64,000 nt of DNA from an uncultured Acidobacteriota bacterium (GTDB lineage: Bacteria; Acidobacteriota; UBA6911). Each line of letters starts with the position of its first letter. Position 1 is the first letter of the stretch. The stretch covers positions 198,417 to 262,416 of the forward strand of contig CAVZBT010000012.1 in assembly GCA_963773605.1 (NCBI GenBank), in the 5' to 3' direction. Positions 19,397 to 62,677 of this stretch are shown here, in pieces. The translations under genes were made by a program, and so were the position numbers. Below the pieces are notes generated by a model. It saw nothing but the letters and a program-made list of their open reading frames with translations. It searched no databases and was not told the origin of the DNA.

Positions 19397-19505
19397 GGAG
19401 TGCGGTGCCTCGGCACCGCTGTCTGGGTTGCGCTGGACCGGCAGGGGGGGCCCAAGGTCGGCGCCTAGGCGCCGACCCCAAAGCGGCGTCGAGCCGCCGC
19501 ACTCC
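19397..19505. repeat. Single REP-like structured element (family A)
   Basis: GGAGTGCGGTGCCTCGGCACCGC...GGTCGGCGCCTAGGCGCCGACCCCAAAGCGGCGTCGAGCCGCCGCACTCC. The termini GGAGTGCGG/CCGCACTCC are complementary. Confidence 0.85.
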
Positions 19506-19642
19506 AAACCGGTGTTTGAGGGCCGCTGCCAAGTAATGCAGCAGAGCAGGGTGCCCCGCAGGGGACCGCACGTGGGCGAAGATGCGGGGCGCGCGTGGGG
19601 CACGGGAGTTGCTGCGCTAACGGCAAGCGGAGAGCCTTGGCT

Positions 19643-19957
19643 ATGATTGCCCCCGCCGCATACCGGACCCGTCCACCGAGGTTCCCAATCCGGGCGCCCA
19701 TCTATTACCGCGGACGCTGGGAGCCGGACTGGACCGAGGGCACGACGCTCAACATCAGCCGAGGCGGCGTGCTCTTTCAAAGCCCCACCGAGCTCGAGCC
19801 GCAGTGCGTCGTGCAGGTACGCATCCTCTTCCCGGCCGAGCTGACCGGCGCGGCGGCGGCAAACATGGTCGGCACCGCCACCATACTGCGCATGGAGCCG
19901 GAGCGGTCGGCGGTGGCGGCGTCCCTGGTCAACTGCAGATTTGTGCAGGGGGAGTGA
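19643..19957 (+). CDS. PilZ domain protein (putative c-di-GMP receptor)
   Basis: MIAPAAYRTRPPRFPIRAPIYYR...GTTLNISRGGVLFQS contains an N-x-S-x-x-G motif (NISRGG) and an Arg-rich N-terminal RTRPPR that approximates RxxxR. Size is about 104 aa. Confidence 0.6.
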   Translation: MIAPAAYRTRPPRFPIRAPIYYRGRWEPDWTEGTTLNISRGGVLFQSPTELEPQCVVQVRILFPAELTGAAAANMVGTATILRMEPERSAVAASLVNCRFVQGE

Positions 19958-19996
19958 GCAGCAACCTCAAAGGCGGAAAGGGCTCCGAGATTCTCG

Positions 19997-20026
19997 AAGG
20001 CCGGGGAACGACCCGGCCTTTTTTTT
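19997..20026 (+). terminator. Rho-independent terminator after the PilZ gene
   Basis: AAGGCCGGG-gaacga-CCCGGCCTT followed by a T8 run (20019-20026). Confidence 0.75.
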
Positions 20027-20197
20027 GCCACGGAGGACACCCCGGGAATCCGGGCCCCGTCCTTCGTGCTGTGCGCGGCACCACGGCACTCCTAAGAGCG
20101 AAACCGGCAAAAGTGTGATGCGCGGCATACTCCGCAACGTCCTACGAGCAGATAAGTAGGACCGGGGAAGCCTCGAACACGCTAAAGGGGTGTCGCA

Positions 20198-23100
20198 ATG
20201 AGGATGCCGCGCATAGACCGGTTTATACGGCGTAGCTGTGGACCGATACCGATCTCACTGTTGTTCATCCTGATTGGCTTCGCGGCATCCCCCCCTGCGG
20301 CGCTGCCTGCGGATGTGACGCTCGCCTGGGACCCGTCCACGGGACCCGGCCTGGCCGGCTACAAGATCTATTACGGCACCGCCTCCGGCCGGTACACGAA
20401 CTCGGTCGATGTCGGCAACGTCACAACTTACGTGGTGACCGGCCTATCTCCGGGGACGTGGTACTTCGCGGCGACCGCCTACGACTCCACACGCAAGGAA
20501 ACCGTTTCGTCCAACGAGGTGTCGGTCCTTGTGGCCGCCGCCGACACCCAGGCTCCGGTGATCAGCGGCGTGGCGGCATCGGGCATAACCACCTCGGCTG
20601 CGGCGATCGGCTGGACCACGAATGAGCCGTCCAGCAGCCAGGTCGAGTATGGTCCGACAACCGCTTACGGCACCGTGGCGTCGCCGGGCGGCGCGATGGC
20701 GACATCCCACGCCGTCCTCCTCGGCGCCCTGCTTCCCTCGACCACCTATCATTACCGGGTCCTGTCCGCGGATGCTGCAGGCAACCTCTCGGTGTCGTCC
20801 GATGCCACCTTTACGACGCTGGCCCCGGCCGACATCACCCCTCCGGTGATCAGCGGCGTGAGCAGTTCGTCGGTGAGCGGCACCGCCGCGACCATCACCT
20901 GGACCACCAACGAGGCAGCCGATAGCCAGGTCGAGTACGGCCTCTCGACCAGCTACGGTCTGTCAACCACGCTCGACACGGCGAAGTTGACGTCGCATAC
21001 GCAGGTCCTGACGGGGCTTGCCGAAAACACGATCTATCACTACCGCGTCAAGTCGAAGGACGCGGCGAATAACGGGGCAGTCTCGACCGACTACGGCTTC
21101 ACCACCCTCGATTCCACCGCTCCGGTGATCAGCGGGGTGAGCAGTTCGTCGGTGACGGCCACCTCCGCGACCATCACCTGGACCACGAACGAGGCGGCCG
21201 ACGGCCGGGTCGAGTACGGCCTCTCGACCGCCTACGGTTCGTCAACCACGCTCGATCCGGCGAGGTCGGCCTCGCATGCGCAGTCCCTGACCGGGCTCAC
21301 GGAAAAGACGATCTATCACTATCGCGTCAGATCGAAAGACGCGGCGGGTAACGAGGCGTTCTCGGCCGATTACACGTTCACCACCATCGACGCCACCCCT
21401 CCGGTGATCAGCGGGGTGAGCAGTTCGTCGGTGACCGGTACCTCCGCGACCATCACCTGGACCACGAACGAGGCAGCCGACAGCCAGGTCGAGTACGGCC
21501 TCTCGACCGCCTACGGTTCGTCAACCACGCTCGACCCGGCGAAGTCGACCTTGCATGCGCAAGCCCTGACCGGGCTTGCCGAAAAGACGACCTACTACTA
21601 TCGCGTAAAATCCAAAGATAATGCGGGAAACCTAGCAATTTCATCAAGTGCCACTTTCACTACTGTAACCGCCGCGGACACCACCGCCCCAGTAATCAAC
21701 GCCGTGAGCAGCTCGTCGGTGACCGGTACCTCCGCGACCATCACCTGGATTACGAACGAGGCGGCCGACAGCCAGGTCGAGTACGGCGTCTCGACTGCCT
21801 ACGGTTCCTCAAGCACGCTCAACGCGGCCAGGGCGACCTCGCACGCGCAGGCCCTGACCGGGCTGACCGAAAAGACGATCTATCACTACCGCGTGAAGTC
21901 GAAAGACGCAGAGGGTAACGGGGCGGTCTCGGCCGATTACACCTTCACAACCCTCGATGCGACGCCCCCGGTGATCAGCGGCGTGAGCAGTTCGTCGGTG
22001 ACGGGCACCTCCGCGACCATCACTTGGACCACGAACGAGGCGGCCGACGGCCGGGTCGAGTACGGCCTCTCGACCGCCTACGGTTCCAGCGTGTTCAACG
22101 CGGCGCAGTCGACTGCGCATTCCCAGGTCCTGAGCGGGCTCACGGAAGGGAAGACGTATCACTATCGCGTCACGTCGAAAGACGCGGCGGGCAACGCCGC
22201 GGTCTCGGCCGATTACGCGTTTGCGACGACGCCCATCAACGACGTCACCGCCGGGCTGGTCGCCGCCTACGGCTTCGACGAAGGCGCGGGCTCGGTCACC
22301 TCGGACTATTCCTCCAACTTGAACACCGCCGTCCTGAAGAACGTGAGCTGGTCGCCCACGGCGAAGTTCGGCAGGGCCCTTTCGTTCAATGGAAAGAACA
22401 GCTATGTGTCGGCCGGCGTGGCCGGCCTGCCGGACATCGGCACCCCGAAGACGATTGCCTGCTGGGTGTACATGAACAGCAAGCCCGCTTCCATCCAGTC
22501 GACGGTCACGCTTGCCAACCCGGTACAGAAGGCCTCGGTGAAGCAGGGGACCAGGACCTCACAGGCGGGGGCGTTGCGCTACGGAGACACCTGGCTGGTT
22601 GCCTCGGCGCTGCCGTCGGTGAAGAAGTGGCACCATTTCGCCTATGTTTTCGACGGGTTGATGAACCGGTTCTACGTTGACGGGGTGCTGGCCAGCACCT
22701 CGACGGTTCCCTCGAACATGGCTCCCGTAACCAGCTTGGACATCGGCCGGTCGAACCCGGCCTCCGAGTACTACAAGGGAATCATCGACGAGGTCCGCAT
22801 CTACAACCGGGCGCTCAGCCAGGCGGAAGTGAAATCGATCATGACGGCGCCGATCGCGAATCTGAAGGGGACGACCGGCGCCGCCGCCCCGTCGCAGATG
22901 GCCATGACCGAGACGGCGCAAACCGATGCGTCCGGGGAGGACCTCGCCATCGCGGACGATGCTGCCGATGCAACGGTGCCCTATGCCGAGGGCTCCCTCC
23001 CGGTGGTCGAGGTGGGGCTGACGCAGCGGTATTACGGGGTCGGGGAGGTTGTGACTGCCGGCTCGTACCGGGTCAGCAACCCGTCGGACCACGGCCGGGA

Positions 23101-23650
23101 GATCGAGTTGAAGACGTGGGTGGAGGGCCCGGGCCTGGCGCCGGTCCCGGTGTGGGGCTTTGGTGCGGACGAGGCGTTCAAACTGCCTCCGGGCTACGAC
23201 GAAGACTACGGCCCGCTGGGGCTGTTTGACGTGTCGGGGGATCTGCCTGCGGGGAGCTACCAGTTCAAGGCGCGCGTCGTCGACCCGGTGACCGGGGACA
23301 TCTTCTCCGAGGATGGAAAGAGCTTCGCGATCGGGTCCGAAGGGCACAAGCGCAGCGTCGAGCGGCGCGACGAACCGGTGCTGCTGGCCGACATGCAGCA
23401 GTGGGGCGAACTCGGGGTTACGAATGCCGGCGGCGGGGCGGCGGTGATTGAGGTGAAGATATGGCTCGAAGCGCCGGGCCGCTCCCCGGTTGCGGTGCTG
23501 TCGGTGGGCGCCGACGGCTCCCTGGTGCTGGCCCCGGGCGCAGCCATGACGCTCGACCCGTTGTCGTCCTTTGACCCGCCGCCCGGCTCGTGGACCGTAA
23601 AGTTCCGCATCCTCGACCCGGTCACCGCACGGATCGTGCTGGAACGTTAG
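20198..23650 (+). CDS. Secreted protein: N-terminal Fn3, six tandem Fn3-like repeats, LamG/ConA-like domain, two C-terminal Ig-like domains
   Basis: Same architecture as 16643-19261, but with six copies of the ~95-aa repeat (about 20543-22235), which are highly similar at the DNA level. LamG-like region: ALSFNGKNSYVS..WHHFAYVFDGLMNRFYVDG..GIIDEVRIYNRAL. Confidence 0.85.
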   Translation: MRMPRIDRFIRRSCGPIPISLLFILIGFAASPPAALPADVTLAWDPSTGPGLAGYKIYYGTASGRYTNSVDVGNVTTYVVTGLSPGTWYFAATAYDSTRKETVSSNEVSVLVAAADTQAPVISGVAASGITTSAAAIGWTTNEPSSSQVEYGPTTAYGTVASPGGAMATSHAVLLGALLPSTTYHYRVLSADAAGNLSVSSDATFTTLAPADITPPVISGVSSSSVSGTAATITWTTNEAADSQVEYGLSTSYGLSTTLDTAKLTSHTQVLTGLAENTIYHYRVKSKDAANNGAVSTDYGFTTLDSTAPVISGVSSSSVTATSATITWTTNEAADGRVEYGLSTAYGSSTTLDPARSASHAQSLTGLTEKTIYHYRVRSKDAAGNEAFSADYTFTTIDATPPVISGVSSSSVTGTSATITWTTNEAADSQVEYGLSTAYGSSTTLDPAKSTLHAQALTGLAEKTTYYYRVKSKDNAGNLAISSSATFTTVTAADTTAPVINAVSSSSVTGTSATITWITNEAADSQVEYGVSTAYGSSSTLNAARATSHAQALTGLTEKTIYHYRVKSKDAEGNGAVSADYTFTTLDATPPVISGVSSSSVTGTSATITWTTNEAADGRVEYGLSTAYGSSVFNAAQSTAHSQVLSGLTEGKTYHYRVTSKDAAGNAAVSADYAFATTPINDVTAGLVAAYGFDEGAGSVTSDYSSNLNTAVLKNVSWSPTAKFGRALSFNGKNSYVSAGVAGLPDIGTPKTIACWVYMNSKPASIQSTVTLANPVQKASVKQGTRTSQAGALRYGDTWLVASALPSVKKWHHFAYVFDGLMNRFYVDGVLASTSTVPSNMAPVTSLDIGRSNPASEYYKGIIDEVRIYNRALSQAEVKSIMTAPIANLKGTTGAAAPSQMAMTETAQTDASGEDLAIADDAADATVPYAEGSLPVVEVGLTQRYYGVGEVVTAGSYRVSNPSDHGREIELKTWVEGPGLAPVPVWGFGADEAFKLPPGYDEDYGPLGLFDVSGDLPAGSYQFKARVVDPVTGDIFSEDGKSFAIGSEGHKRSVERRDEPVLLADMQQWGELGVTNAGGGAAVIEVKIWLEAPGRSPVAVLSVGADGSLVLAPGAAMTLDPLSSFDPPPGSWTVKFRILDPVTARIVLER

Positions 23651-23756
23651 TACCGGATTCCGTAAATACGACCTTTGCTCGCTGAACACCAGGAAGAGGG
23701 CCGCGTGCGTCGGCGTGTTCCCGCGTCATCGCGGCCGTAGTGACACAGCGCAATTT

Positions 23757-23812
23757 GGAGTGCGGCGGCTCGACACCGCTCTCCCGGGCGGCGCCTCGGC
23801 GCAGCCCTTCAT
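23757..23812. repeat. Partial/rearranged REP-like element
   Basis: GGAGTGCGGCGGCTCGACACCGCTCTCCCGGGCGGCGCCTCGGCGC shares blocks with the 33.6-34.4 kb variant but lacks the closing CCGCACTCC arm. Confidence 0.5.
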
Positions 23813-23880
23813 CGCCGACCAGTACGTTACCATAATTGCGAACGGCAGTACTCAGCCTGCTGTCTGGTCAGCCACGAAGG

Positions 23881-25653: not shown

Positions 25654-26304
25654 TCAGACCGGCAGGAATCTTCCCAGGAAGGGGAAGAGGACGTTCACGA
25701 ATTCGAGAGCGCTTTCTTCTGCGAGACGCTCGGATTCAGGACTCAGGTCGGCGATGGGGCAGACAACGCGGACGAGTGCGGCGTCGGTGCGGCCCGTGCG
25801 CATGGCGTCAAGGACGGTGTAGACCTTGCCCCAGTATTCGCTCGCGATGACGCGGCCATGGCTCTGGTACCAGTAGAGTACCAGCTGCTTGCCGGTACCC
25901 TTCAGGATGGCGATCCGGTTGATGCGGACCGGGTCTGCGCCTGCATCGGGGGGCATCACGACCAGGGTTCCGCGATTCACGGGATTCCAGCCGGAGCCGG
26001 GCAGGCAGTTCAGCGGGGAATGGATCGTGTCCCCCTGCCGCTGGCTCTTGTAATAGCCGACGTACAGGTAGGCAATCTCGCCGGACGGCTTCCCATAGAC
26101 ACGATTCACGTAATCATCCACCCCGAGCACCGTGAGCACACGCTGCTCAAAGGCCGGCAGGTCGTTTCCGCTCCAGGACCCGAGTGCCAGGGGCAGCTTC
26201 TCGAGGGATTCGCGCGGCGGGATCGCTTCAGGCCGCGCGGCCCGGGTAATGTAGCCAGCGGTCAACAGCAACGAGGCGCTCAGGACGAGGATCCGGACGA
26301 TCAT
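25654..26304 (-). CDS. epsI: EpsI family protein (exosortase-associated)
   Basis: MIVRILVLSASLLLTAGYI..LPLALGSWSGNDLP..LGVDDYVNRVY..IAYLYVGYYKSQRQGDTIHSPLNCLPGSGW is the EpsI/methanolan-type signature. It starts 9 nt after the exosortase stop. Confidence 0.85.
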   Translation of the reverse strand: MIVRILVLSASLLLTAGYITRAARPEAIPPRESLEKLPLALGSWSGNDLPAFEQRVLTVLGVDDYVNRVYGKPSGEIAYLYVGYYKSQRQGDTIHSPLNCLPGSGWNPVNRGTLVVMPPDAGADPVRINRIAILKGTGKQLVLYWYQSHGRVIASEYWGKVYTVLDAMRTGRTDAALVRVVCPIADLSPESERLAEESALEFVNVLFPFLGRFLPV

Positions 26305-26312
26305 TTTTTCTC

Positions 26313-27179
26313 TCACGCGGCGGCCGACCTGGTTTGCTCTGCCTCGCTTCGGTTGGGCGCTATGCAGAGCAGGAATCTCTGGACCACAAACAGGAGCAGG
26401 AACGCCGCCAGGAAGACGAGCCAACCCGAGAAGGTGTGGAAAAAACCCTGCGCTGCCTCCGGACCGTAGAACTGGGCGGCTATCCCAGTCCCGGCCACCC
26501 GGATCCCGTTGGCCAGGATAGCGATGGGAACGGTCGCCAGGGCGAGCGCGGTCCGGAACCAGATCCGTGAATCGGTGAAATACCCGTAGACGATTCCCAG
26601 GGTGAGCAGGGAGACGAGGGATCGTATGCCGCTGCACGCTTCCGCAACCTCCAGGCTCGTGTTGGCGAGGTTGATGACGTTGCCCTCGCGCAGCACCGGC
26701 ACCTGGCAAGCCAGGAGCGCCACCTCGCCAAAGCGGGAGGCCAGGAGCTGCAGGGGGAAGGCGATCTGGTTGAAGATGATGGCGGGAATCGGGATCATCA
26801 GCAGAAGGAACAGGATCGGGAACAGCATCACCTTCAGGTGCTGCCAGCCGCAGAGAAAGAGCAGGGTCCCGGCAATCATCCCGAGAAGCGAAATGCGGGT
26901 CATGAACAGCTCGGATCCGAGGATCCCGGCCACAAGGCTGGCGAGGGCGCCCAGCACGACAACCAGGCCCAGCCAGCTCGGGCGGGCGGCTGCCTCCCGG
27001 AAACGCGCTCGCCGCTCCCAGGCAAAGTATGCCGCAAGCGGCACGATCAGGAACCCGTGGGAGTAATTGTCGTCGATCGACCAGTCGTGCACCAGTTTCC
27101 CGATCACATCCCAATAGACGATTGCGAAACTTGCCAGGAGCAGGGCCAGTGCCGATGCCAATCCAGCTTTCCTGTTCAT
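26313..27179 (-). CDS. xrtA: Exosortase (EpsH/XrtA-type)
   Basis: DDNYSHGFLIVPLAAYFAW, EACSGIRSL (catalytic Cys) and ANGIRV motifs in a polytopic membrane protein. ATG at 27179; an alternative GTG is at 27218. Confidence 0.9.
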   Translation of the reverse strand: MNRKAGLASALALLLASFAIVYWDVIGKLVHDWSIDDNYSHGFLIVPLAAYFAWERRARFREAAARPSWLGLVVVLGALASLVAGILGSELFMTRISLLGMIAGTLLFLCGWQHLKVMLFPILFLLLMIPIPAIIFNQIAFPLQLLASRFGEVALLACQVPVLREGNVINLANTSLEVAEACSGIRSLVSLLTLGIVYGYFTDSRIWFRTALALATVPIAILANGIRVAGTGIAAQFYGPEAAQGFFHTFSGWLVFLAAFLLLFVVQRFLLCIAPNRSEAEQTRSAAA

Positions 27180-27349
27180 AACCACCAATGTGGAGGGCTC
27201 GAGCCAGGAGCCTATCACCGTATCGAGCCGGCGTAAAGCAGCGACACAACGAACGAAAAAAGGCGCCGAAGTTCATTTCGGCGCCTGGGTGGATTTTTGA
27301 TACTTCTAATTCGAAAGAGGTGGCGCCTGGGCGGCGCTGTCTAAAATAT

Positions 27350-27928
27350 GGAGTGCGGTGCCTGGGCACCGCTGTCTGGGTTTGGCTGGACCGGCAGGCA
27401 GCTCCGCAAGGTCGGCGCCTAGGCGCCGACCCCAAAGCGGCGTCGAGCCGCCGCACTCCAAAATATGGAGTGCGGTGCCTGGGCACCGCTGTCTGGGTTT
27501 GGCTGGACCGGCAAGCAGGCGCGCAAGGTCGGCGCCTAGGCGCCGACCCCAAAGCGGCGTCGAGCCGCCGCACTCCAAAGTATGGAGTGCGGTGCCTGGG
27601 CACCGCTGTCTGGGTTTGGCTGGACCGGCAAGCAGCTCGCGCAAGGTCGGCGCCTAGGCGCCGACCCCAAAGCGGCGTCGAGCCGCCGCACTCCAAAATA
27701 TGGAGTGCGGTGCCTGGGCGGCGCTGTCTGGGTTTAGCTGGACCGGCAGGCAGGTGCGCAAGGTCGGCGCCTAGGCGCCGACCCCAAAGCGGCGTCGAGC
27801 CGCCGCACTCCAAAATATGGAGTGCGGTGCCTGGGCACCGCTGTCTGGGTTTAGCTGGACCGGCAGGCAGCTCCGCAAGGTCGGCGCCTAGGCGCCGACC
27901 CCAAAGCGGCGTCGAGCCGCCGCACTCC
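27350..27928. repeat. Tandem array of 5 REP-like elements (period 117-118 bp), family A, plus a degenerate partial copy at about 27317-27345
   Basis: Copies start at 27350, 27467, 27584, 27702 and 27819. Each reads GGAGTGCGGTGCCTGGGCACCGCTGTCTGGGTTT.GCTGGACCGGCA.GCAG....GCAAGGTCGGCGCCTAGGCGCCGACCCCAAAGCGGCGTCGAGCCGCCGCACTCC. The array ends 4 nt before the prsK stop codon. Confidence 0.9.
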
Positions 27929-27932
27929 AAAA

Positions 27933-29996
27933 CTAGGCCCGGCAGGGAAGCAGGATGCGCACGGTGGTGCCTTTCCCGATCTGGCTCTCGACCGCTATGC
28001 TGCCCCGGTGGGCTTCCACGATCCGCTTGCACTGAAACAACCCGATCCCCAGCCCGTCGCTCTTGGTCGTGTGGAACGGGTGGAACAGTTCTTTCTGAAG
28101 GAATTCCGGCGTCATCCCTCTCCCCCGGTCGATCACGGCCAGCTCGACCCTTTCGTTTACGCGAGCGGTTCTGATGACGATCTCGTCCCCGGCCGAGGTT
28201 GCCTCGCGGGAGTTGAGCACCAGGTTCTGGAGCACGCGGCCGATCTCCTCCGAGTCCATCAGGACGGGCGGCACCTCGGACAGCTGCAGTGTCACGACCC
28301 GATCATCCCCGTCGAGCATCCCGGCGGCACAGTCCCTGACCAGCCGGTTGATATCCTGGAGCTTTCGATCTGCTGCCAACGTTGCCGAGAAGGTCTTCAG
28401 GCTGTTGCACAGCCGCTTCATTTTCCCGGCGGTATCGTGCACCGACTGGAACGCGTCCTTCTGGAAGTCCGGGTTGTCGCGGTGGCGCGTGGCGTTTCCG
28501 GCGACCAGCGACAGCGTGGAAGCGAAGTTCTTCAGATCGTGGAGCAGGAACGTCGAGAACGTGCGGAAGGCCTCCGCCTCCTTGGCCTCCACGAGCGTGG
28601 CCAGCAGTTCCCACTTGTGGAGCTCGCCGGCGGCGTGGCCGCCCAGAACCCGCAGGAACTCCCGGGTTTCCCGGTCGTAGGGACGGCCGCTGCGGTCGCT
28701 CCCGACGGTCATGACGCCGACCAGCCGGTCGCTCGACAGCAGGGGGACCAGCAGGGCCGCACGCGTCTTTTGCGCAAAATCGCGCAGCCCGGTTTGCCCC
28801 GCATCGATCGTATCGCCGCCGAATACGTCCTTGTAGTGAAGGAGGTTGAGGACGATCCCGTCCTCCGCCGTTTCACCGGTTTCGGGAGTGTTGCCGATGT
28901 ACGACAGGAGGCTCAGGCGGTTCGGATCGCGCAGGCGGAGCCACACGGTTACATCTATGGCGCCCAGGGCGCTGTGCACTATGTGCGCGAGTTCTGCGGC
29001 GCCAATTTTCGGGTCGTCGATGGACCGGATTTTTTCGGACGCCTGCATCCAGTATTGCCGGTAATCGTAACGACCGGAGAAGATGTTGCGGCGCAGCCAT
29101 TGCCGGACCCGCTGGCGGAAGCTGGTCCAGAACAGGACCAGTCCCATGGCCACCGCCGCAAGCAGGAAAACGAGCGCTTCCAGTTCGAGGTCGCTCTGGC
29201 CCAGAAGGCTGGCCCAGCGCGCCAGGAGGCTCGATACGATGAGGTAGACGCCGACGGCCAGCAGCGTGATGGAGCTGAAGGCCAGGGTCTGCGAGATTCT
29301 GATCCCGCCACCGCCCGCACTGCGGCGCCAGGAAACCAGGATCAGGACCGAAGCGACCAGGGACATGACCGGCAGGACGCTCAGGGAGTCCAGCGGCAGG
29401 AGCGCGTAGCTGAACGAATAGAGCAGCACCCTGGAAGCGAGATACAGCACGCTGGCAAACGAGGCGGCCAGCCCGAGCATGAGGAACTTGATTTTCCACC
29501 GGGCCCCCTCGTCGGAGCCGCGCACGATCTGCTCGATATGCGCAAGGCTCAGAACGGACAGGGCCAGGAGATAGACCGAAGCCAGGTATCCGCCAGGACC
29601 GAGGGCGACAAACGTACCGTCCTGGATGCTGGAGATTTCGAGTACCGGCCGCTCCAGGAGCAACAGCGCAGCAAGCAGCGGCGCCGGGACGGCGACCAGG
29701 ATTACGGGGATTCTTCGCTTGCGCAGCGCCGCGCGGTAATCCGGCTGGCCGAAGGCCCAGAGGAACCGGAGGGCCGCCGGGAAGGCCGCTACAAGCAGCG
29801 CGTAGGCAATCCGGGCTTTCCACTCAAACGAAAGGACGGTCTCGGCCACAAGAGAGTGAAGGCCGAATCCGATGGCCGGTAGCGCCAGGAACCAGGAGAG
29901 CATCCAGGAACCCGCTCCGAACCGGGGTGCCACAAGCACCAGGATGGCGACGCCCAGGGTCAGCGCGGCGGGAACGACAAAAAGCAGTTCACTCAT
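27933..29996 (-). CDS. prsK: PEP-CTERM system histidine kinase PrsK-like (multi-TM sensor, GAF-like domain, HisKA/HATPase)
   Basis: About 8-10 N-terminal TM segments. FSTFLLHDLKNFASTLSL is the H-box. QNLVLNSREA..AVIDRGRGM..FHPFHTTKSDGLGIGLFQCKRIVEAHRGSI are the N/G boxes. The architecture and the context next to the exosortase match PrsK. Confidence 0.85.
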   Translation of the reverse strand: MSELLFVVPAALTLGVAILVLVAPRFGAGSWMLSWFLALPAIGFGLHSLVAETVLSFEWKARIAYALLVAAFPAALRFLWAFGQPDYRAALRKRRIPVILVAVPAPLLAALLLLERPVLEISSIQDGTFVALGPGGYLASVYLLALSVLSLAHIEQIVRGSDEGARWKIKFLMLGLAASFASVLYLASRVLLYSFSYALLPLDSLSVLPVMSLVASVLILVSWRRSAGGGGIRISQTLAFSSITLLAVGVYLIVSSLLARWASLLGQSDLELEALVFLLAAVAMGLVLFWTSFRQRVRQWLRRNIFSGRYDYRQYWMQASEKIRSIDDPKIGAAELAHIVHSALGAIDVTVWLRLRDPNRLSLLSYIGNTPETGETAEDGIVLNLLHYKDVFGGDTIDAGQTGLRDFAQKTRAALLVPLLSSDRLVGVMTVGSDRSGRPYDRETREFLRVLGGHAAGELHKWELLATLVEAKEAEAFRTFSTFLLHDLKNFASTLSLVAGNATRHRDNPDFQKDAFQSVHDTAGKMKRLCNSLKTFSATLAADRKLQDINRLVRDCAAGMLDGDDRVVTLQLSEVPPVLMDSEEIGRVLQNLVLNSREATSAGDEIVIRTARVNERVELAVIDRGRGMTPEFLQKELFHPFHTTKSDGLGIGLFQCKRIVEAHRGSIAVESQIGKGTTVRILLPCRA

Positions 29997-32472: not shown

Positions 32473-33607
32473 TCCCGACGTTTGCCAGGAGATCGGCGAC
32501 GCGGTGGTCCCACGTGTGGTGCGACAGGATAGTCGAGCGGGCGGCGGAGCCAAGGGACATTCTGAGTCCCGCGTCGGCGTGAAGCCGCTCCAGGCCATCA
32601 CACAAGGAGTCCTTCGAACCCGGCGCAAAAATCCAGCCGTCCACACCGTGGGTAATCAGATCGCGGATCGGACCATAATCGGGGGCGAGCACCGGTTTTC
32701 CCGCCGCCATATATTCGAGGATCTTCATGGGGGAACCGTGCTCGTTCGAATCGGCCAGGAGGCAGACGTCCATCGCATCGACGTATCCCGGGATGGAGGC
32801 CGGGGGAACTGTCCCCGTCAACGTGACGTGGGACTGAAGGTGGAGTTCGGCGATCCTCCGCTCCAGCCTGGGGCGTTCCGGGCCGTCTCCTACCAGCAGC
32901 AGCCTGGAGCCGGTCCGCGTCAGGAACGCTGCGACGCAGTCCAGGAGAAACGCGGCACCGTGCCAGGGTACGAAGGCCGCTACCATCCCGAGGGTGAACG
33001 GGTCGGACGGGGCCCGGGCGGCCACGTCCCCTGGCGACCTGAAGAGTTCCGGATCGACGGCATTCGGTTGAACGAGGAGGCGTCCCAATGCGATCCCGTG
33101 CTTCGCGGTAATCAGGTCTGCGAAGCGACGGGAAACGGTCACGAGCAGGGAAGCGTTCTGGAACGCCCATTTCTCGATCCGCTCGGCCGCTCGTCGAGAA
33201 CTGAGCGGGCGCGATCTGGCAATGACCGTCGCGTCGTTGATCTCGAGCACGGTCGGCACTCCGCAATGGCGTCCGACCCAGGTCCCTGCCCAGCCAAAGA
33301 GTGCGTAACGCTCGTAGATCAGGTCGATCGAGTTCCTGGTAACGAGGTGGCGCAGTCTTGGCAACGATTGAAGGTTGTAGCCGAGCTCGAGTGCTTCGAA
33401 TACGGGCTGCGGGGCAGCGCCGCTTACGAACTTCCACACCGCCCGGTAGCTCCCGGGCCGGGATCCCTCGTGGACTTCGAGCAGAACTCCGGGCGGCGAC
33501 AGGACGTATACCTGGTTTCCGGCCCGGCGGAAGGCATTTACGATACCCCTGATGTGGGCCCCCTCCGCCCCCTTGGCCTGGGTGCGGTGGTGGTAAAGAA
33601 TCCTCAC
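32450..33607 (-). CDS. Glycosyltransferase family 4
   Basis: GTG start at 33607 gives (M)RILYHHRTQAKGAEGAHIRGIVNAFRRAGNQVYVLSP. The GT4 C-terminal region reads DVCLLADSNEHGSPMKILEYMAAGKPVLAPD. The ORF-track N-terminal extension runs into the repeat. Confidence 0.8.
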   Translation of the reverse strand: MRILYHHRTQAKGAEGAHIRGIVNAFRRAGNQVYVLSPPGVLLEVHEGSRPGSYRAVWKFVSGAAPQPVFEALELGYNLQSLPRLRHLVTRNSIDLIYERYALFGWAGTWVGRHCGVPTVLEINDATVIARSRPLSSRRAAERIEKWAFQNASLLVTVSRRFADLITAKHGIALGRLLVQPNAVDPELFRSPGDVAARAPSDPFTLGMVAAFVPWHGAAFLLDCVAAFLTRTGSRLLLVGDGPERPRLERRIAELHLQSHVTLTGTVPPASIPGYVDAMDVCLLADSNEHGSPMKILEYMAAGKPVLAPDYGPIRDLITHGVDGWIFAPGSKDSLCDGLERLHADAGLRMSLGSAARSTILSHHTWDHRVADLLANVGSVVRPVH

Positions 33608-33619: not shown

Positions 33620-34395
33620 GGAGTGCGGCGCCTCGGCGCCGCCCTTCACCTGCACTCTAACGGTCGAACCCCGGCGGCGCCCAGGCGCCGCCCACAAAGC
33701 GGCGTCGAGCCGCCGCACTCCAAAGTCCTACTCTGTCCCGCGCGTGTACCGTCGAGGAGGACTCCAGTCGGTAACAGGAGGTATGCCTGGTTTCCGGCCC
33801 GGCGGAAGGCATTGACGATACCCCTGATGTTAGGCCCCCTACCCTCTTTGGAGTGCGGCGCCTCGGCGCCGCTTTCCCGGGCGGCGGCTCGACGCCGCCC
33901 TTCACCTGCACTCGAACGGTCGAACCCCGGCGGCGCCCAGGCGCCGCCCACAAAGCGGCGTCGAGCCGGCGCACTCCAGAGTCCTACTTTGTCCCGCGCG
34001 TGTACCGTCGAGGAGGACTCCAGGCGGTAACAGGACGTATGCCTGGTTTCCGGCCCGGCGGAAGGCATCGACGATACCCCTGATGTGGGCCCCCTACCCT
34101 CTTTGGAGTGCGGCGCCTCGGCGCCGCTTTCCCGGGCGGCGGCTCGACGCCGCCCTTCACCTGCACTCGAACGGTCGAACCCCGGCGGCGCCCAGGCGCC
34201 GCCCACAAAGCGGCGTCGAGCCGCCGCACTCCAAAGTCCTACTCTGTCCCGCGCGTGTACCGTCGAGGAGGACTCCAGGCGGTAACAGGACGTATGCCTG
34301 GTTTCCGGCCCGGCGGAAGGCATTGACGATACCCCTGATGTGGGCCCCGTACCCCCTTGGAGTGCGGCGTCGAGCCCGTCGAGCCGGCGCACTCC
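33620..34395. repeat. Composite tandem array: 4 REP-like elements (family B) embedded in ~254-bp units that also carry copies of the csd 3' end and the GT4 5' coding region
   Basis: GGAGTGCGG starts at 33620, 33850, 34105 and 34359 (periods 230, 255, 254). The inter-REP segments repeat AGTCCTACTCTGTCCCGCGCGTGTA (compare the csd end at 34397-34421) and CTGGTTTCCGGCCCGGCGGAAGGCATTGACGATACCCCTGATGTGGGCCCCCT (compare the GT4 codons at 33511-33562). Confidence 0.85.
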
Positions 34396-40431: not shown

Positions 40432-40437
40432 AGTTTT

Positions 40438-40742
40438 GGAGTGCGGCGGCTCGACGCCGCTTTGGGGTCGGCGCCTAGGCGCCGACCTTGGGCTCACACC
40501 GGCCGGTCCAGTGCAACCGCAACAGCGGTGCCAAGGCACCGCACTCCAGAATTTGGAGTGCGGCGGCTCGACGCCGCTTTGGGGTCGGCGCCTAGGCGCC
40601 GACCTTGGGCTCACACCGGCCGGCCCAGTGCAACCGCAACAGCGGTGCCAAGGCACCGCACTCCAGAATTTGGAGTGCGGCGGCTGGACGCCGACCTTGG
40701 GCTCACACCGGCCGGCCCAGTGCGACCGCGACAGCGGTGTCA
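40438..40742. repeat. Tandem array of about 2.6 REP-like elements (family A, opposite orientation to the 27.3 kb array; period 117 bp)
   Basis: Copies start at 40438, 40555 and 40672. Each reads GGAGTGCGGCGGCTCGACGCCGCTTTGGGGTCGGCGCCTAGGCGCCGACCTTGGGCTCACACCGGCCGG.CCAGTGCAACCGCAACAGCGGTGCCAAGGCACCGCACTCC. The array begins 7 nt from the asnB-like ATG, and its truncated last copy overlaps the stop codon at 40740-40742. Confidence 0.9.
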
Positions 40743-43393: not shown

Positions 43394-43481
43394 GGAGTGC
43401 GGCGCCTGGGCGCCGCCGTTGGCCGGCTCCGACCCTATCATCCTTCGTGTTTTGAAGGGCGCCGTCGAGCCGCCGCACTCC
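43394..43481. repeat. Single REP-like element (short variant)
   Basis: GGAGTGCGGCGCCTGGGCGCCGCC...GGGCGCCGTCGAGCCGCCGCACTCC. It ends 13 nt before the rhodanese stop codon. Confidence 0.8.
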
Positions 43482-43493: not shown

Positions 43494-43964
43494 TTAATAG
43501 AGCGTGATCACCTTCCCCAGGGGGGTCATCTTCTTGACCTTGGTGCCGTCGTAATAGGGAAACCCGGCTTTGAGCATCGCAGGCTGGCCGTCGGCAATCA
43601 CGATCACATTCTTGTACCCGCGCTGAAGCAATATCAGTGCCGCACCGGCACTGTAGCCTTCGGCGGGCCCTCAGTTGCAGAAGACTCCGATGAGAACTCC
43701 GGGGGGGGCGTTTATTTTCACCCCGGCAAGCCTGGTCGTCGGTACGTAGACGGCTCCCACGATGTCCGAGCGGCGCTTGTCGTCCCCGCCGGGATGCACG
43801 TCCATGAGGATAATCTTGCCAGCCTGATACAACTGGAGAGCTTGTCGCGCTCCCACGTGGCGGACCTGAGTCCGGGGATCTGGCTGCCCGTATGAAAGCG
43901 GAGCCAGGGCCACGACAACCAGTATGGCGGCAAGCGCCCTTCGCAAAGCTGCTGGCGCGGTCAT
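43494..43964 (-). CDS. Periplasmic single-domain rhodanese-like sulfurtransferase with an in-frame TGA (43671-43673) in the active-site loop; either a selenoprotein candidate or a nonsense pseudogene
   Basis: An AGGAGGAGG SD lies 6 nt before ATG 43964. The signal peptide is MTAPAALRRALAAILVVVALAPLSYG. The rhodanese pattern is GKIILMDVH..IVGAVYVP..VLIGVFCN-TGA-GPAEGYSAGAALILLQRGYKNVIVIADGQPAMLKAGFPY. The same frame continues 59 codons past the TGA to TAA at 43494-43496. Confidence 0.55.
43635..43653 (-). promoter_or_regulatory. SECIS-like stem-loop downstream of the in-frame TGA
   Basis: The mRNA reads UGA-N17-CAGUGCC-GGUGC-GGCACUG. This is a 7-bp stem with an apical loop starting GG. The loop begins 24 nt after the UGA. 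Confidence 0.3.
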
Positions 43965-55330: not shown

Positions 55331-56392
55331 CTAGGTCAGGTGCCGCGAGATCAGCGGGCCGATGGTGTTTGCCACAGGCATGGGCAAGTGGCGCCAGGTT
55401 CGAATCAGGAGCGAGAATTTCGGGTTCAGGGGCGACGTGTCGGGCAGCGCCGTGCGGCGGACCAGGTGGTATTGATAGGGCAAGTCCAGCATCGTCATGC
55501 CCCACCGTTTCTTGAAGTCGAAGGAGCCGGTCCCTTTCTTGCTCCGGCCGAAGTCGTATACGCGGCAGCCGTTCTCACAGCCGTACCTGATCAGCATCCA
55601 GTATATGAAGTTGTTGACGGCGAGGCGGTTGTATTCACGGAAGGAGCCGCCGTAGTACGGAACGACTTCGCCCTGATAAAAGAGCGTCAGGACGGCTGCC
55701 GCCAGCTTTCCGTTACTGTGCACCGAAAAGATACGGCAGTCCGACCCGAACTGGTGTTTTATTTCGTGAAACAGCCGTTTGGTGAAGATGGGTGTCCCAA
55801 GGTCGCGCAGGCTGCGCGAGTATACCGAGTAAAACTCGTCCACCCCGATCGAGTCCACGCCGAATTCCAGCCCGTTGCGGATCCCTTCTCTTATCTCGGC
55901 CCGGGTCTTGCGCGGGATTGACAGCATCTGCTTTTCGACATCCGGGGTCAGCTCGACCCGAAACGTCACGTACAGATCTTTCCGCGGCATGGACGGGTCG
56001 TCTACCTCGTTTCGGAAGTTCCGCAGCTCAAGGAAGTCCACTTTCTCGTGCTCGGCGAGAGCCTTCGCCTCCGCCAGCAGCACTCGATAGGCATTCGGGT
56101 CGGTGGCGAGAATCCCGCCGTAGGCGCCCTGCGGCGTGGACACGAGCATCCGGCCGAACACCAGGCTGCGCACGAGGAATAGCGGAAGCACGCCGGCAAT
56201 CTCCCCGGACGGCCCCCGCGCGATCAGGTGGCTGGGCTTGTGGCCGAACGCGGATTGGATCGAGCGCTGCCAGGCGGACAGGTGGAACGGGGAGCCGGCG
56301 GGGTGGGATCGGACGAACGTGTCCCAGGCGGCGTCTGGTGTGGTCAGGGCAGGAGTGTCCATACTCGAAGACTCGAAGACGCAAAGACTCAA
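55331..56392 (-). CDS. FemAB-related protein, PEP-CTERM-system-associated type
   Basis: WDTFVRSHPAGSPFHLSAWQRSIQSAFGHKPSHLIA..GVLPLFLVRSLVFGRMLVSTPQGAYGGILA..YWMLIRYGCENGCRVYDFGRS. The start is at 56392 or 56362. Confidence 0.8.
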   Translation of the reverse strand: MSLCVFESSSMDTPALTTPDAAWDTFVRSHPAGSPFHLSAWQRSIQSAFGHKPSHLIARGPSGEIAGVLPLFLVRSLVFGRMLVSTPQGAYGGILATDPNAYRVLLAEAKALAEHEKVDFLELRNFRNEVDDPSMPRKDLYVTFRVELTPDVEKQMLSIPRKTRAEIREGIRNGLEFGVDSIGVDEFYSVYSRSLRDLGTPIFTKRLFHEIKHQFGSDCRIFSVHSNGKLAAAVLTLFYQGEVVPYYGGSFREYNRLAVNNFIYWMLIRYGCENGCRVYDFGRSKKGTGSFDFKKRWGMTMLDLPYQYHLVRRTALPDTSPLNPKFSLLIRTWRHLPMPVANTIGPLISRHLT

Positions 56393-56416
56393 AGGCTCGA
56401 AAAGTACGAAAGTCGA

Positions 56417-58694: not shown

Positions 58695-58700
58695 GCCGCA

Positions 58701-58940: not shown

Positions 58941-59055
58941 ACTGGCCGTCCCCTTTTGTTTTCACTATCCAGACACAAGCCCCTATTCATGGGGTGAGGA
59001 GAATCCCAATCTAACACTCTCCCTGCGCAGTGTCAACGGATCGGCGCGGGCCGGC

Positions 59056-59259: not shown

Positions 59260-59375
59260 TGCCTTCTCCCTTCATATCGTGCGAATGGCACGATTGTATG
59301 AGCAGGAATTTGGAAAAACAAGGACATAACCCGGGACCCGGAAGACGAAAACTCCACGCCGTCCAGCGGGCAGGC

Positions 59376-59405
59376 TTGTGCCTCCGGGGGGGGCGACGGT
59401 ATAAT
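59376..59405 (+). promoter_or_regulatory. Sigma-70-like promoter candidate for the BY-kinase gene, with a G8 tract in the spacer
   Basis: TTGTGC (59376-59381), an 18-nt spacer containing GGGGGGGG (59386-59393), then TATAAT (59400-59405), about 40 nt upstream of ATG 59445. Confidence 0.3.
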
Positions 59406-59444
59406 CGCCTCGCGGATTTTTCCCTCTCAGGTCCTGCCGGAGCG

Positions 59445-60395
59445 ATGAGTGCAGAAATATGTGAAATATCGCCGCAGGATCTCGATAAGATAGACGTTAT
59501 GAGTGAAATATACGGCTGGCTCAAGAAAACGGAACGTGAGCGGAAGAAGCTGCAGGCTGAGACGCCTCCGGAGTTGCCCCCGGTCGCGGCTCCGATGGGC
59601 GGGGGTCCGGCCCCGACTTTCGAAGAGCACGCAGATTCGGCACACCCGGCGGCTCCAAACGCTCTGATGGGAAGGGCCGGCGTGTTTGACCTGGCTGCGG
59701 CGAACAACCGGGTCCGCATGGTCCTCGATCCGCAAACGCTCATGGGGGAGCAGTTCCGGGTTCTGCGCTCCAAACTCTCGCTGATGCAGAAGCACCGCGG
59801 CATCAAGACGCTGCTCGTGACCAGCACTATTCCCCGGGAGGGGAAAACCTTCACCGCGTGCGGGTTGGCCGGCGTCCTGGCCCAGGAGCCCGGGAGACGG
59901 GTCGTTCTTGTCGACGCGGACCTCAGGAAACCCACCGCGGGGCAGAAAATCGGGCTAAACGGCTCGGGAAATATGGACGGTCTGGCTGCGATCCTGCGTG
60001 GCGAGAAGGGGATCGAGGAGGCGTTGTTCAGCTCCAAGACCTTCGAATTCTGCTTCCTGCCCGCGGGGGCGGTGCCCCCCAACCCGTCGGAGCTGCTCAG
60101 CTCGCCTTTACTCGAACAGATGCTGAAGTCGATGGCCGAGACATTCGACTGGGTGGTGGTGGACTCTCCTCCCGTGCTGGCGCTGGCCGACACTCCGCTG
60201 ATTGCATCGCTTTGCGATACCGTCGTGCTGGTGGTGCAGTCCGATTCCACTCCTTCGAAGCTCGTCCTCGAGGCCATTCAGAGGATCGGGCGCGAGAAGA
60301 TCTGCGGCGTGGTCATGAATCGGACCCGGCAACTGCACTCGTCGCGGTACTACTACCACTACTACACCGGCAAATCGCAAAGCCGGATCCAGTAA
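59445..60395 (+). CDS. BY-kinase-like protein tyrosine kinase (EpsG/CpsD-type ATPase with C-terminal Tyr cluster)
   Basis: The Walker A reads LLVTSTIPREGKTF. The Walker A'/B regions read VVLVDADLRKP and WVVVDSPPV. The C-terminal Tyr cluster reads SSRYYYHYYTG. The start is at 59445 or 59499. Confidence 0.8.
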   Translation: MSAEICEISPQDLDKIDVMSEIYGWLKKTERERKKLQAETPPELPPVAAPMGGGPAPTFEEHADSAHPAAPNALMGRAGVFDLAAANNRVRMVLDPQTLMGEQFRVLRSKLSLMQKHRGIKTLLVTSTIPREGKTFTACGLAGVLAQEPGRRVVLVDADLRKPTAGQKIGLNGSGNMDGLAAILRGEKGIEEALFSSKTFEFCFLPAGAVPPNPSELLSSPLLEQMLKSMAETFDWVVVDSPPVLALADTPLIASLCDTVVLVVQSDSTPSKLVLEAIQRIGREKICGVVMNRTRQLHSSRYYYHYYTGKSQSRIQ

Positions 60396-60409
60396 CATTA
60401 AGACTGCAA

Positions 60410-62245
60410 ATGAATCGAGTCTTCGAGTCTTCCGGTCTTCGACTCTTCGAGCTGATCTTTCTGATGCTCGCGGCGGCCGGGGTACAGGCCCAGAGCGCCG
60501 CGAACGTTCTGCTCGTCCTCAACGAAGCGAGCCCCGTGTCCCTCGAAGTGGGGCAGTACTATGCTCAGAAGCGCGGGATTACGCCGGGCAACATCATCCG
60601 GCTGAAGATCCCGGTCGACGACGAAATCTCCCGCCAGGGGTTCGAACGGGGGATCGAGGCGCCGCTGGCCCGCTGGTTTGCCGCCAATTCCGGTCACGAC
60701 CGTATTCTCTACATCGTGCTGACCAAGGGGGTGCCGTTGCGCATTTCCGGCTCCGGCGGGGCGGACGGCACGGTGGCGAGCGTCGATTCGGAGCTGGCGC
60801 TGCTCTACCGGAAAATGGCGGCGCAGCCGGTGGCTGCCGCGGGCCGTGTCCCCAACCCCTACTTCCTCGGCGACGTACCGCTTTCGCAGGCGAAGCAGTT
60901 CTCCCACGAGTTCCAGGAGATCTACCTCGTCACGCGCCTGGATGGTTATACCAGCGCCGATATCCGCGGGTTGATCGACCGCGGTTTTGCGCCCGCCAAG
61001 GAGGGGAAGATTGTCCTCGATGAAAAACAGTCGGGGCAGGAAAAAGGGAACGCGTGGCTGAGGGCGGCCGCGGATGCGCTCGGCAGCCTGGGGTCGGGCG
61101 GTCGCGTCGTGCACGACGCGACCGAAAAGGTGCTCACGGGGACAAAGGATGTCCTGGGGTACTACTCCTGGGGATCCAACGACCCGGCCATCCGGATCCG
61201 CCATTTCGATTTCGGATTTGTCCCGGGTGCGCTGGCCGGGATGTTCGTCAGCTCGGATGGGCGCACATTCAGCGAGCCCCCGGCCGACTGGAAGCTGGGG
61301 ACGTGGGACGACAAGAGCACGTACTTCGCCTCATCGCCGCAGTCCCTGGCCGGGGACCTCATCCGCGACGGCATCACGGGCGTGGCGGGCCACGTGGCCG
61401 AGCCTTTCCTGGAATCGACGATCCGGCCGGACATTCTCTTCCCGGCGTACCTCTCGGGATTCAACCTTGCGGAATCCTATTACCTGGCCATGCCGTATCT
61501 GAGCTGGCAGACCGTGATCGTCGGCGATCCGCTGTGCGCGCCGTTTCGGACGACGTCCCTCGGGACGGAGCAGATCGACCAGGGGATCGACGAGGAGACC
61601 GAGTTGCCGGCATACTTCGGGCCGCGACGTTTCCACACCATATCGGTCGCTGCGTATCAGCAGGCGCGCATTCACCCGGATACGACCCGGCTGTTGATCA
61701 GGGCGGAAGTCAGGGTGGCCAGGCGCGACCTGGCGGGGGCCCGCCGGATTCTGGAGGAGGCGACGTCGCGCGACAGCCGGATCCTGTCGGCACAGCTCAC
61801 CCTGGCATCGCTGTACGAGCAGGCGCAGGAGTACGACAAGGCGATCGAGCGGTACCGGCGCATCCTGCAGCTGAACGCGGAAAACCCGGTCGCGCTCAAC
61901 AATCTCGCCTACGCGCTCGCGGTGCGGAAGAATGCGCCGCAGGAAGCGCTGCCCATGGCCGAGAAGGCCTATGCGGCAACGAAGGGTAACCCCAACATGG
62001 CCGACACGGTCGGGTGGATCCATCACCTGTTGGGGGACGACAAGAAGGCGAAACCCTACCTTGAAGCGGCCATCAACGGCGGGGCGCCGAATCCCGAGAT
62101 GCACTTCCATGCGGCTGCCATCTATGCGGCGCTGGGCGAGGAATTAGCGGCCGCCGCCGAACTCGAGCACGCCCTGCAGGCCGACCCCGATCTCGCCAAG
62201 CGCGAAGACGTCCGCCAGCTTCAAGCGAAACTGCAAAAGAAGTAA
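60410..62245 (+). CDS. Secreted protein resembling the uncharacterised TIGR03790 family, with a C-terminal TPR region
   Basis: Signal peptide LFELIFLMLAAAGVQAQS. ANVLLVLNEASPVSLEVGQYYAQKRGITPGNIIRL..YIVLTKGVPLRI..ASVDSELALLY..NPYF..IYLVTRLDGYT..VAGHVAEPFL..SWQTVIVGDPLCAPF, then TPR-like repeats. Confidence 0.65.
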   Translation: MNRVFESSGLRLFELIFLMLAAAGVQAQSAANVLLVLNEASPVSLEVGQYYAQKRGITPGNIIRLKIPVDDEISRQGFERGIEAPLARWFAANSGHDRILYIVLTKGVPLRISGSGGADGTVASVDSELALLYRKMAAQPVAAAGRVPNPYFLGDVPLSQAKQFSHEFQEIYLVTRLDGYTSADIRGLIDRGFAPAKEGKIVLDEKQSGQEKGNAWLRAAADALGSLGSGGRVVHDATEKVLTGTKDVLGYYSWGSNDPAIRIRHFDFGFVPGALAGMFVSSDGRTFSEPPADWKLGTWDDKSTYFASSPQSLAGDLIRDGITGVAGHVAEPFLESTIRPDILFPAYLSGFNLAESYYLAMPYLSWQTVIVGDPLCAPFRTTSLGTEQIDQGIDEETELPAYFGPRRFHTISVAAYQQARIHPDTTRLLIRAEVRVARRDLAGARRILEEATSRDSRILSAQLTLASLYEQAQEYDKAIERYRRILQLNAENPVALNNLAYALAVRKNAPQEALPMAEKAYAATKGNPNMADTVGWIHHLLGDDKKAKPYLEAAINGGAPNPEMHFHAAAIYAALGEELAAAAELEHALQADPDLAKREDVRQLQAKLQKK

Positions 62246-62251
62246 GAATTT

Positions 62252-62677
62252 GGAGTGCGGTGCCTCGGCACCGCTGTCGCGGTTGCGCTGGATCGACAGG
62301 CAGGCGCCCACGGTCGGCGCCTAGGCGCCGACCCCAAAGCGGCGTCGAGCCGCCGCACTCCAAATCAGACCTTCCGATAATCTGGAGTGCGGTGCCTCGG
62401 CACCGCTGTCGCGGTTGCGCTGGATCGATAGGCAGGCGCTACGGTCGGCGCCTAGGCGCCGACCCCAAAGCGGCGTCGAGCCGCCGCACTCCAAATCAGA
62501 CCTTCCGATAATCTGGAGTGCGGTGCCTCGGCACCGCTGTCGCGGTTGCGCTGGATCGATAGGCAGGCGCCCAGGGTCGGCGCCTAGGCGCCGACCCCAA
62601 AGCGGCGTCGAGCCGCCGCACTCCAAATCAGACCTTCCGATAATTTGGAGTGCGGTGCCTAGGCGCCGACCGCAAAA
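62252..62677. repeat. Tandem array of about 3.3 REP-like elements (family A, period 131-132 bp including a 22-nt linker)
   Basis: Copies start at 62252, 62384, 62515 and 62647 (the last is internally deleted). The linker is AAATCAGACCTTCCGATAATCT. The array begins 7 nt after the upstream stop and abuts the prsT-like stop codon at 62678-62680. Confidence 0.9.

Follow-up and report, generated by a model that had tools for sequence, protein, structure and literature searches.

The stretch of DNA considered here, hereafter the window, comprises 64 kb of contig CAVZBT010000012.1 (positions 198,417 to 262,416; assembly GCA_963773605.1) from an uncultured Acidobacteriota bacterium, and it holds an exopolysaccharide (EPS)/PEP-CTERM locus in which a family of short, hairpin-rich repeats lies at the gene junctions. 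An original prediction, made from the letters of the window alone, had taken these repeats for elements like repetitive extragenic palindromes (REPs) and their clusters, the bacterial interspersed mosaic elements (BIMEs), and we found the repeats much as it had described them, with all seven sites, the termini, a 22-nt palindrome, the tandem arrays and the recurring peptides of their spurious translations. The terminal sequence GGAGTGCGG, which together with CCGCACTCC forms the ends of the units, occurs 33 times over both strands against 1.1 expected, and the palindrome GGTCGGCGCCTAGGCGCCGACC is present in 11 exact copies and one with 3 mismatches, with 0 in shuffled sequences. In total the elements amount to 2383 bp, or 3.7% of the window, and the computed fold of one unit reaches -70.9 kcal/mol on the plus strand (z = -4.6) and -66.2 kcal/mol on the minus strand (z = -4.7). 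By the calls of a codon-usage gene caller of our own making, which is crude and was trained on the long open reading frames (ORFs) of all DNA analysed, each of the 33 terminal tags at the seven sites falls between genes, as had been claimed, four of the sites separating genes of the same direction, two (23757 and 62247) separating convergent genes and one (19397) lying in a divergent gap.

Four of the sites were recovered as arrays by Tandem Repeats Finder (27343-27932, 117 bp x 5.0, 95% matches; 33625-34369, 255 bp x 2.9; 40435-40701, 117 bp x 2.3, in the opposite orientation; and 62247-62668, 132 bp x 3.2), and the copies at 19397-19505, 23757-23812 and 43394-43481 were seen by direct sequence reading. 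Upstream of an fn3/LamG gene (16643-19324, minus strand), in the divergent gap, is a single full unit of 109 bp (19397..19505, plus strand) composed of a left part GGAGT-GCGGTGC/ctcg/GCACCGC, the 22-nt palindrome in the centre and a right module AAAGCGGCGTCGAGCCGCCGCACTCC, and 106 nt past the stop of the gene at 20198-23650 (plus strand) is a partial copy (23757..23812, plus strand) consisting of the module GGAGTGCGGCGGCTCGACACCGC and a second GC hairpin. Between the stop codon of prsK (27933-27935) and the gene for an XrtA-type exosortase, both on the minus strand (27933-29996 and 26313-27218, respectively), lies a BIME-like array (27318..27932, plus strand) in which a degenerate partial unit is followed by five head-to-tail units of 117 bp, each being the 109-bp unit with an AAAATAT-type spacer. 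An array with a 255-bp period and 2.9 copies (33620..34395, plus strand) carries in each period a variant REP doublet together with gene-derived copies. The array of opposite orientation (40435..40742, minus strand) has two full 117-bp units and a truncated, internally deleted third that abuts the stop codon of an fn3/Kelch gene (40740-40742), and it starts 7 nt from the ATG of an AsnB-like amidotransferase gene (about 40431, minus strand). A short inverted doublet of 88 bp without the 22-nt palindrome (GGAGTGCGGCGCC..GGCGCCGC ... GCCGTCGAGCCGCCGCACTCC; 43394..43481, plus strand) lies 12-13 nt from the stop of a rhodanese gene (43494-43496, minus strand), and an array with a 132-bp period and a 22-nt spacer, made of three units and an internally deleted fourth (62247..62677, plus strand), lies between the convergent genes 59858-62245 (plus strand) and 62678- (PrsT-like, minus strand), abutting the PrsT-like stop.

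A hairpin is found within 13 nt of a stop codon at six of the seven sites, and the 27350 and 40438 arrays have opposite orientations, though both lie within minus-strand gene trains. The distances to starts and stops agree with those originally claimed (4 nt for the prsK stop, 7 nt for the AsnB-like ATG and 12-13 nt for the rhodanese stop, with abutting stops at 40740-40742 and at the PrsT-like gene), and Pfam/NCBIfam matches fit the names prsK, exosortase, AsnB-like and PrsT-like, and further support a GT4 glycosyltransferase, a SufS-like desulfurase and a TIGR03790/TPR protein. The array limits needed minor correction: the degenerate partial unit precedes the 27343 array from about 27318, and at 33620-34395 only part of each 255-bp period is the element, the remainder being copied flanking gene sequence. 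Copy-to-copy differences cluster just 5' of the 22-nt palindrome (about 27395-27407, and likewise 62300-62312 and 19445-19455), where the variable stretch takes the forms cagctccgcaa, caggcgcgcaa, cagctcgcgcaa and caggtgcgcaa, the hairpins themselves being identical between copies.

The part of the unit that is found outside this genome is its terminal module, whose consensus, taken from partner modules outside the search pattern, is TTT-GGAGT-[GCG nnn / GCTYGA / nnn' CGC]-TTT. The GGAGT tag was invariant in 37/37 aligned modules and the foot was TTTGGAGT-GCG in all of them, with no GTAG or GTGG; also constant are the stem pairs at both ends (the first two and the last two) and the greater part of the loop. 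The mid-stem is variable, and its three inner pairs vary with compensation such that GC, CG, AU and UA are all seen. As a control, a perfect hairpin of at least 5 bp followed 39% of GGAGTGC heptamers outside the search, compared with 2-9% for eight control heptamers, and when only GGAGTGC...GC was used as anchor, 205 of 212 mid-stem cells were Watson-Crick pairs, with wobble pairs divided 2 vs 2 by strand. Such near-perfect Watson-Crick stems would fit a palindrome maintained at the DNA level better than an RNA made from one strand. The spacing of inverted (head-to-head) pairs peaks at 60-160 bp and is flat elsewhere, and about 87% of 145 elements in other genomes are intergenic. Some genomes (L137 2880-3160 and 3848-3890; L057, L062, L116 and L120) have an extra outer hairpin, GCGCGAAGCGC, adjoining the tag (TGCGCGAAGCGCTTTGGAGTG...), with which the conserved end comes to about 45 nt. 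At about 1910-1975 of L150, upstream of the RAYT (REP-associated tyrosine transposase) gene at 2001-2555, the module loop is split by an insert (GGAGTGCGGCGG-tccgcttcgcggactcctgtgaaaccggag-CTCGACGCCGCTTT), and this suggests that something may insert into hairpin loops.

The module is widespread. The exact 23-mer of this genome, GCGGYGTCGAGCCGSCGCACTCC, was found in at least 115 stretches of genome_contigs from at least 79 assemblies and, by record title, at least 12 phyla; among the matches listed the labels include Acidobacteriota, Verrucomicrobiota, Planctomycetota, Armatimonadota, Kiritimatiellota and Lentisphaerota, as well as Chloroflexota, Dormibacterota, Sumerlaeota, Coatesbacteria, Desulfobacterota and a few others. 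Several of the matches sit on contigs as long as 0.1-6 Mb, which rules out binning debris, and none of the loci overlaps the window. In viral_contigs the pattern AAAGCGGCG-N6-CGCCGCACTCC was present in 24 stretches, with varying loops and with matches that are often inverted pairs. A metagenome scan with the 22-nt palindrome for independent copies of the composite unit gave three unrelated solo palindromes only, and since the central palindrome is not shared elsewhere the composite unit is probably lineage-specific; the 22-nt palindrome and the GGTGCC hairpin appear to be lineage-specific additions within the doublet spacer. We identified four public sequencing runs with the organism, all of them low-coverage DNA metagenomes (2-5x, short contigs), in which the contig depth summed at the repeats is several-fold above that of the unique flanks, a figure that is not a copy number, and in which most repeat contigs continue into other sequence; such a pattern would be expected were there many further copies at other places. 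An exact-protein look-up of PrsK for sister strains found no record.

With respect to described families, Rfam 15 at the gathering threshold gave 0 matches on the window and only tRNAs on 20 module-rich loci, while permissive thresholds added only generic hairpin matches below threshold on the window. The Rfam family Acido-Lenti-1 was considered as an identity and rejected, no Rfam family reaching threshold on the window or the 20 loci and its sequence family being a different one. A literature search for the literal module sequence returned nothing but chance primer matches, and no published description was found of a GGAGT-tagged family with an H-Y-H RAYT in many phyla as such. A likeness of AGTGCGGT to the Haemophilus uptake signal was dropped as chance.

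The ORFs lying between inverted modules led to a candidate enzyme. One of them (L137, 3202-3729, minus strand) encodes a 176-aa Y1_Tnp protein (PF01797, 26 bits against a cut-off of 23) and is bracketed by inverted modules, including the outer hairpin described above. The protein has 282 homologues at E < 1e-5, most of them on one contig each, with labels that include Verrucomicrobiota, Armatimonadota, Acidobacteriota and Chlamydiota; the source annotations describe some as transposases of Verrucomicrobia, Armatimonadota, Thermoanaerobaculia, Acidobacteria or Parachlamydiaceae, and one as a ‘REP-associated tyrosine transposase’. All eight homologue contigs examined have hairpins with the GGAGTGC tag no more than 320 nt from the gene, in most cases on either side of it, and the mid-stems and loops of these flanking hairpins vary between genomes. 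A tblastn search of the 115 pattern loci added two further genes of the clade, in L038 (Syntrophaceae) and L130 (Kiritimatiellales), both flanked by doublets or arrays. Combined, the module flanks a gene for a Y1/HUH protein of 176-190 aa in 11 of the 11 genomes examined, where the chance expectation for a 7-mer in 640 nt is about 0.08. The original guess that the repeats could be substrates of a RAYT thus gains backing from the sequences of other genomes. An alignment of 11 members shows WPHxPxH, QAWA..NHYH and SY.ARL.YV..N to be invariant, including H64-Y65-H66 and Y125, and the sole match of the enzyme in the PDB is E. coli TnpA-REP (4ER8, E = 5.6e-5). Since the hairpins flank a Y1 gene whose sole structural match is TnpA-REP, the arrangement is that of a REPtron. 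Class 3 TnpA-Y1 transposases of Planctomycetes and Acidobacteria, with a ‘CnGA foot’, were considered as partner and rejected, as the foot does not match and the enzyme has a class 2 RAYT signature. In L143 (3001-3624, P0020) and L130 (1580-2200) the RAYT genes read into the downstream REP, which gives the proteins a C-terminal repeat tail of the ‘GVEPPHSK’ type. In a Candidatus Acidoferrum assembly (L053, 4555-5466) the ORF between two inverted modules encodes an HNH endonuclease of 303 aa.

The arrays of the window carry a record of how they may have formed. Besides the variant doublet, each 255-bp period at 33620..34395 contains two pieces of gene sequence: about 25 nt that match the 3' end of the SufS-like gene exactly, and about 98 nt copied from the 5' region of the GT4 gene (33468-33565) at 85% identity. 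The 132-bp array has a 22-nt spacer that is similar to both flanks of the array, and the 40435 and 62247 arrays each end in a unit shortened by an internal deletion between similar hairpins. As far as their sequences tell, the copied gene ends, the flank-like spacer and these deletions show that the arrays were built by local duplication or slippage and not by repeated insertion. REP clusters in which REPs are tandemly reiterated along with flanking DNA have been described before (PMC3733652), and further arrays occur beside RAYT genes in other assemblies (L143, 81 bp x 3.6; L115, 180 bp x 1.9; L130, with a period of about 48 bp). The copies of the GT4 5' region also place three ‘decoy’ versions of the gene's own start region upstream of it (33722-33849, 33977-34104 and 34232-34358).

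Taken together, these observations make it likely, in our judgement, that the elements of the window are REP-family clusters, that their terminal module is the recognition hairpin of a RAYT clade, and that effects on EPS transcripts are by-products. The repeats are selfish elements of an already known type, rather than control devices built for EPS operons, and their occurrence as tagged hairpin modules in solo copies, inverted doublets and clusters between genes bears out the REP/BIME-like nature originally proposed. In such a scheme a RAYT would bind the hairpin on single-stranded DNA and cut and rejoin it beside the tag, a step that would spread copies into intergenic gaps; unequal recombination or replication slippage between the units of copies lying close together would then give head-to-tail arrays, with pieces of neighbouring genes carried along. 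Several points weigh against this view. No RAYT gene was found in the window by tblastn, so that we infer the partner enzyme of its copies from other genomes, and the RAYT activity of the clade members from their sequence. The covariation count drew on hairpins chosen for being perfect, and the cross-phylum statistics of position given below rest on the same crude, self-made gene calls. The tag is GGAGT here as against GTAG or GT[AG]G in classical REPs. Finally, RAYTs beside the identical 23-mer are only 49-55% identical to one another, so that conservation of the REP greatly exceeds that of the enzyme; co-evolving REP-RAYT pairs do not usually behave in this way, which hints at an additional constraint.

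An alternative is that the repeats are operon punctuation kept by selection, in which very stable RNA folds would tune how strongly neighbouring genes of the EPS/PEP-CTERM locus are expressed relative to each other (prsK versus the exosortase, for instance) through protection of 3' ends, processing or attenuation. This would account for the very stable folding of the units on both strands and for the hairpins so close to stop codons at six of the seven sites, and there is precedent in E. coli, where ribosomes stall at REPs lying at most 15 nt from a stop codon and REPs in 3' untranslated regions stabilise mRNA (Liang et al. 2015 and others, cited in PMC12306157). Across phyla the median distance of the elements to a stop codon is 67 nt, with 21% within 15 nt, as opposed to 129 nt and 9.5% for predicted start codons, yet such proximity to stops is equally expected from purifying selection against insertions into promoters. 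Against punctuation stand the two orientations found inside same-direction gene trains of the window, the copy at 19397 in a divergent promoter gap, and the presence of the same module at unrelated loci in at least 79 assemblies. Junction types do not help it either: 94 classifiable elements were divided into 61% same-direction, 21% convergent and 18% divergent junctions, compared with 66/17/17% for the background of the same loci, and solo copies are oriented 16 sense to 12 antisense with the gene train. The absence of a junction-type or orientation bias argues against a strand-specific RNA role, as the original prediction had reasoned from the two orientations in the window; its further suggestion that the EPS locus is targeted is not supported, given the spread of the module over at least 79 assemblies and junction types that match the background. 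We see no sign of a terminator-like orientation rule, only that REPs are, as is usual, tolerated at the 3' ends of genes, and regard selected punctuation as unlikely. Because hairpins lie at most 13 nt from stop codons at six sites and REPs so placed stall ribosomes in E. coli, an effect on prsK and other upstream genes is plausible all the same, and 3' end protection, or ribosome stalling by hairpins at most 15 nt from a stop, could occur as by-products of the REP clusters. For the EPS locus this means that no special regulatory device is needed, and that hairpins at most 15 nt from stops may lower the expression of prsK and of other upstream genes.

It is considerably less probable that the units are miniature inverted-repeat transposable elements with GGAGTGCGG... 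as terminal inverted repeats. Inverted ends of about 29 bp and a unit size of 80-130 bp would suit such elements, but the single copies lack target-site duplications (gcgtct / aaaccg at 19397-19505 and tcatgt / agatgc at 43394-43481), solo modules are as common as doublets in other genomes (47 vs 39), which is a REP trait, and the only recurrent gene between or beside the modules is the Y1 transposase, with no DDE gene among the ORFs between modules. We give marginally less credence still to intrinsic (factor-independent) or bidirectional terminators, for which a GC hairpin followed by TTT and the convergent position of some sites (23757 and 62247) might speak: the T run is just 3 nt, termination does not require the sequence conservation seen in the tag, the stem base and the loop, orientation is unbiased with respect to the upstream gene, divergent gaps are not depleted (18% against a background of 17%), and one array (40438) lies 7 nt upstream of a start codon within an operon. 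That the arrays are an artefact of a mis-assembled dispersed repeat is hardly credible, for even though no independent assembly was found in the metagenome scan or the low-coverage public runs described above, the copies of each array can be told apart by differences at specific positions (95-97% identity), the arrays end in distinct internally deleted units with clean joins to unique flanks, and comparable arrays stand beside RAYT genes in the other assemblies L143, L115 and L130.

The REP/RAYT reading leaves the conservation of the hairpin itself to be considered. RAYTs are viewed as vertically inherited and as co-evolving with lineage-specific REPs. Here the hairpin TTTGGAGT-GCGGCG-GCTCGA-CGCCGC-TTT is identical across phyla while the RAYTs are about 50% identical, and conservation beyond the enzyme could reflect either an extreme constraint of recognition, another force that holds the sequence, or movement between phyla. 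We advance only tentatively, as a rather doubtful proposal, that a force other than co-evolution with its transposase keeps the hairpin constant. If this were true, a conserved host factor or process would use the hairpin, making it a domesticated, beneficial element, or else REPtrons of this clade would cross phyla much more frequently than is assumed for RAYTs; the family in this genome would then be a shared functional signal that structures the genome and not mere junk. The GGAGT-tagged REP and its H-Y-H RAYT clade offer a test case for how a RAYT reads its guide and hairpin, and for the crossing of phylum borders by REPtrons.

The closest known systems are the E. coli REP/BIME elements with TnpA-REP (4ER8) and the REPIN-RAYT system of Pseudomonas fluorescens (REPINs being paired REPs), which like the module consist of short GC-rich hairpins with an unpaired 5' tag, occur between genes as solo copies, inverted doublets and clusters, and have a cognate Y1/HUH gene flanked by the same hairpins, i.e. 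a REPtron. They differ in that the HUH motif here is H-Y-H, that the 23-nt hairpin is unchanged in at least 12 phyla whereas classical REPs differ between genera, and that the units of the window have two extra hairpins and form long head-to-tail arrays. The kind of system, REP/BIME plus RAYT, is thus already known, and what appears to be new here is a family with a GGAGT tag and an H-Y-H RAYT across many phyla. By a comparison of motifs only, the clade (NHYH; WY/WF; YVH.NP) matches the signature of RAYT subclass 2.8 (NHYH; W[YH]; YIHYNP; Quentin et al. 2018, PMC6006769), close relatives of which exist in unrelated phyla according to the same study. Subclass 2.8 was sampled there in Cyanobacteria only, and unlike here its flanks are reported to be long canonical REPs with GT[AG]G feet. 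A published precedent of partial likeness comes from Chloroflexus aurantiacus, where GGAGTGCGGCAGCCATGCTGCCG is a REP beside the RAYT ABY36092.1 of subclass 2.2 (PMC6006769, Table S1): the first 10 nt of this variant, tag and stem base, are common to the module, but the REPs beside that gene are otherwise different, being mostly GGCGTG with a 3-nt CAT loop, and the enzyme belongs to another subclass. The GTAG- and CGTC-tagged REP superfamilies (Di Nocera et al. 2013, PMC3733652) embody the same concept of a tagged stem-loop in many phyla, and as the tag here is neither GTAG nor CGTC it would make a third tag class. Membership of the GTAG or GT[AG]G superfamily was excluded, the foot being TTTGGAGT-GCG throughout.

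The arrays also have consequences for annotation, as they yield long false ORFs, false N-terminal extensions and ‘decoy’ gene starts. Spurious ORFs in the window contain the peptide ECGGSTPLWGRRLGADL 8 times and PRRRPQSGVEPPHSK 13 times, and a Pfam search of the ORFs holding these peptides matched no family; extended ORFs are seen at 25654-28032 and in the minus-strand AsnB-like gene, where the family match starts at residue 105 of the long ORF and the start was called at 40431. Masking of such arrays is advisable in genomes of Acidobacteriota, Armatimonadota and the Planctomycetota-Verrucomicrobiota-Chlamydiota (PVC) group. Other repeats were noted in the window. Coding tandem repeats at 18339-18889 (288 bp) and 20836-22216 (279 bp) lie inside two large divergent fn3/purple-acid-phosphatase-N/LamG genes. 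In addition, two tandem runs of 8-bp units, at 56363-56401 (ACTCGAAG x 4.9) and 60415-60451 (TCGAGTCT x 4.6), are mutual reverse complements and enclose about 4 kb with the genes for PqqD, an HprK-like kinase and a nucleotidyltransferase.

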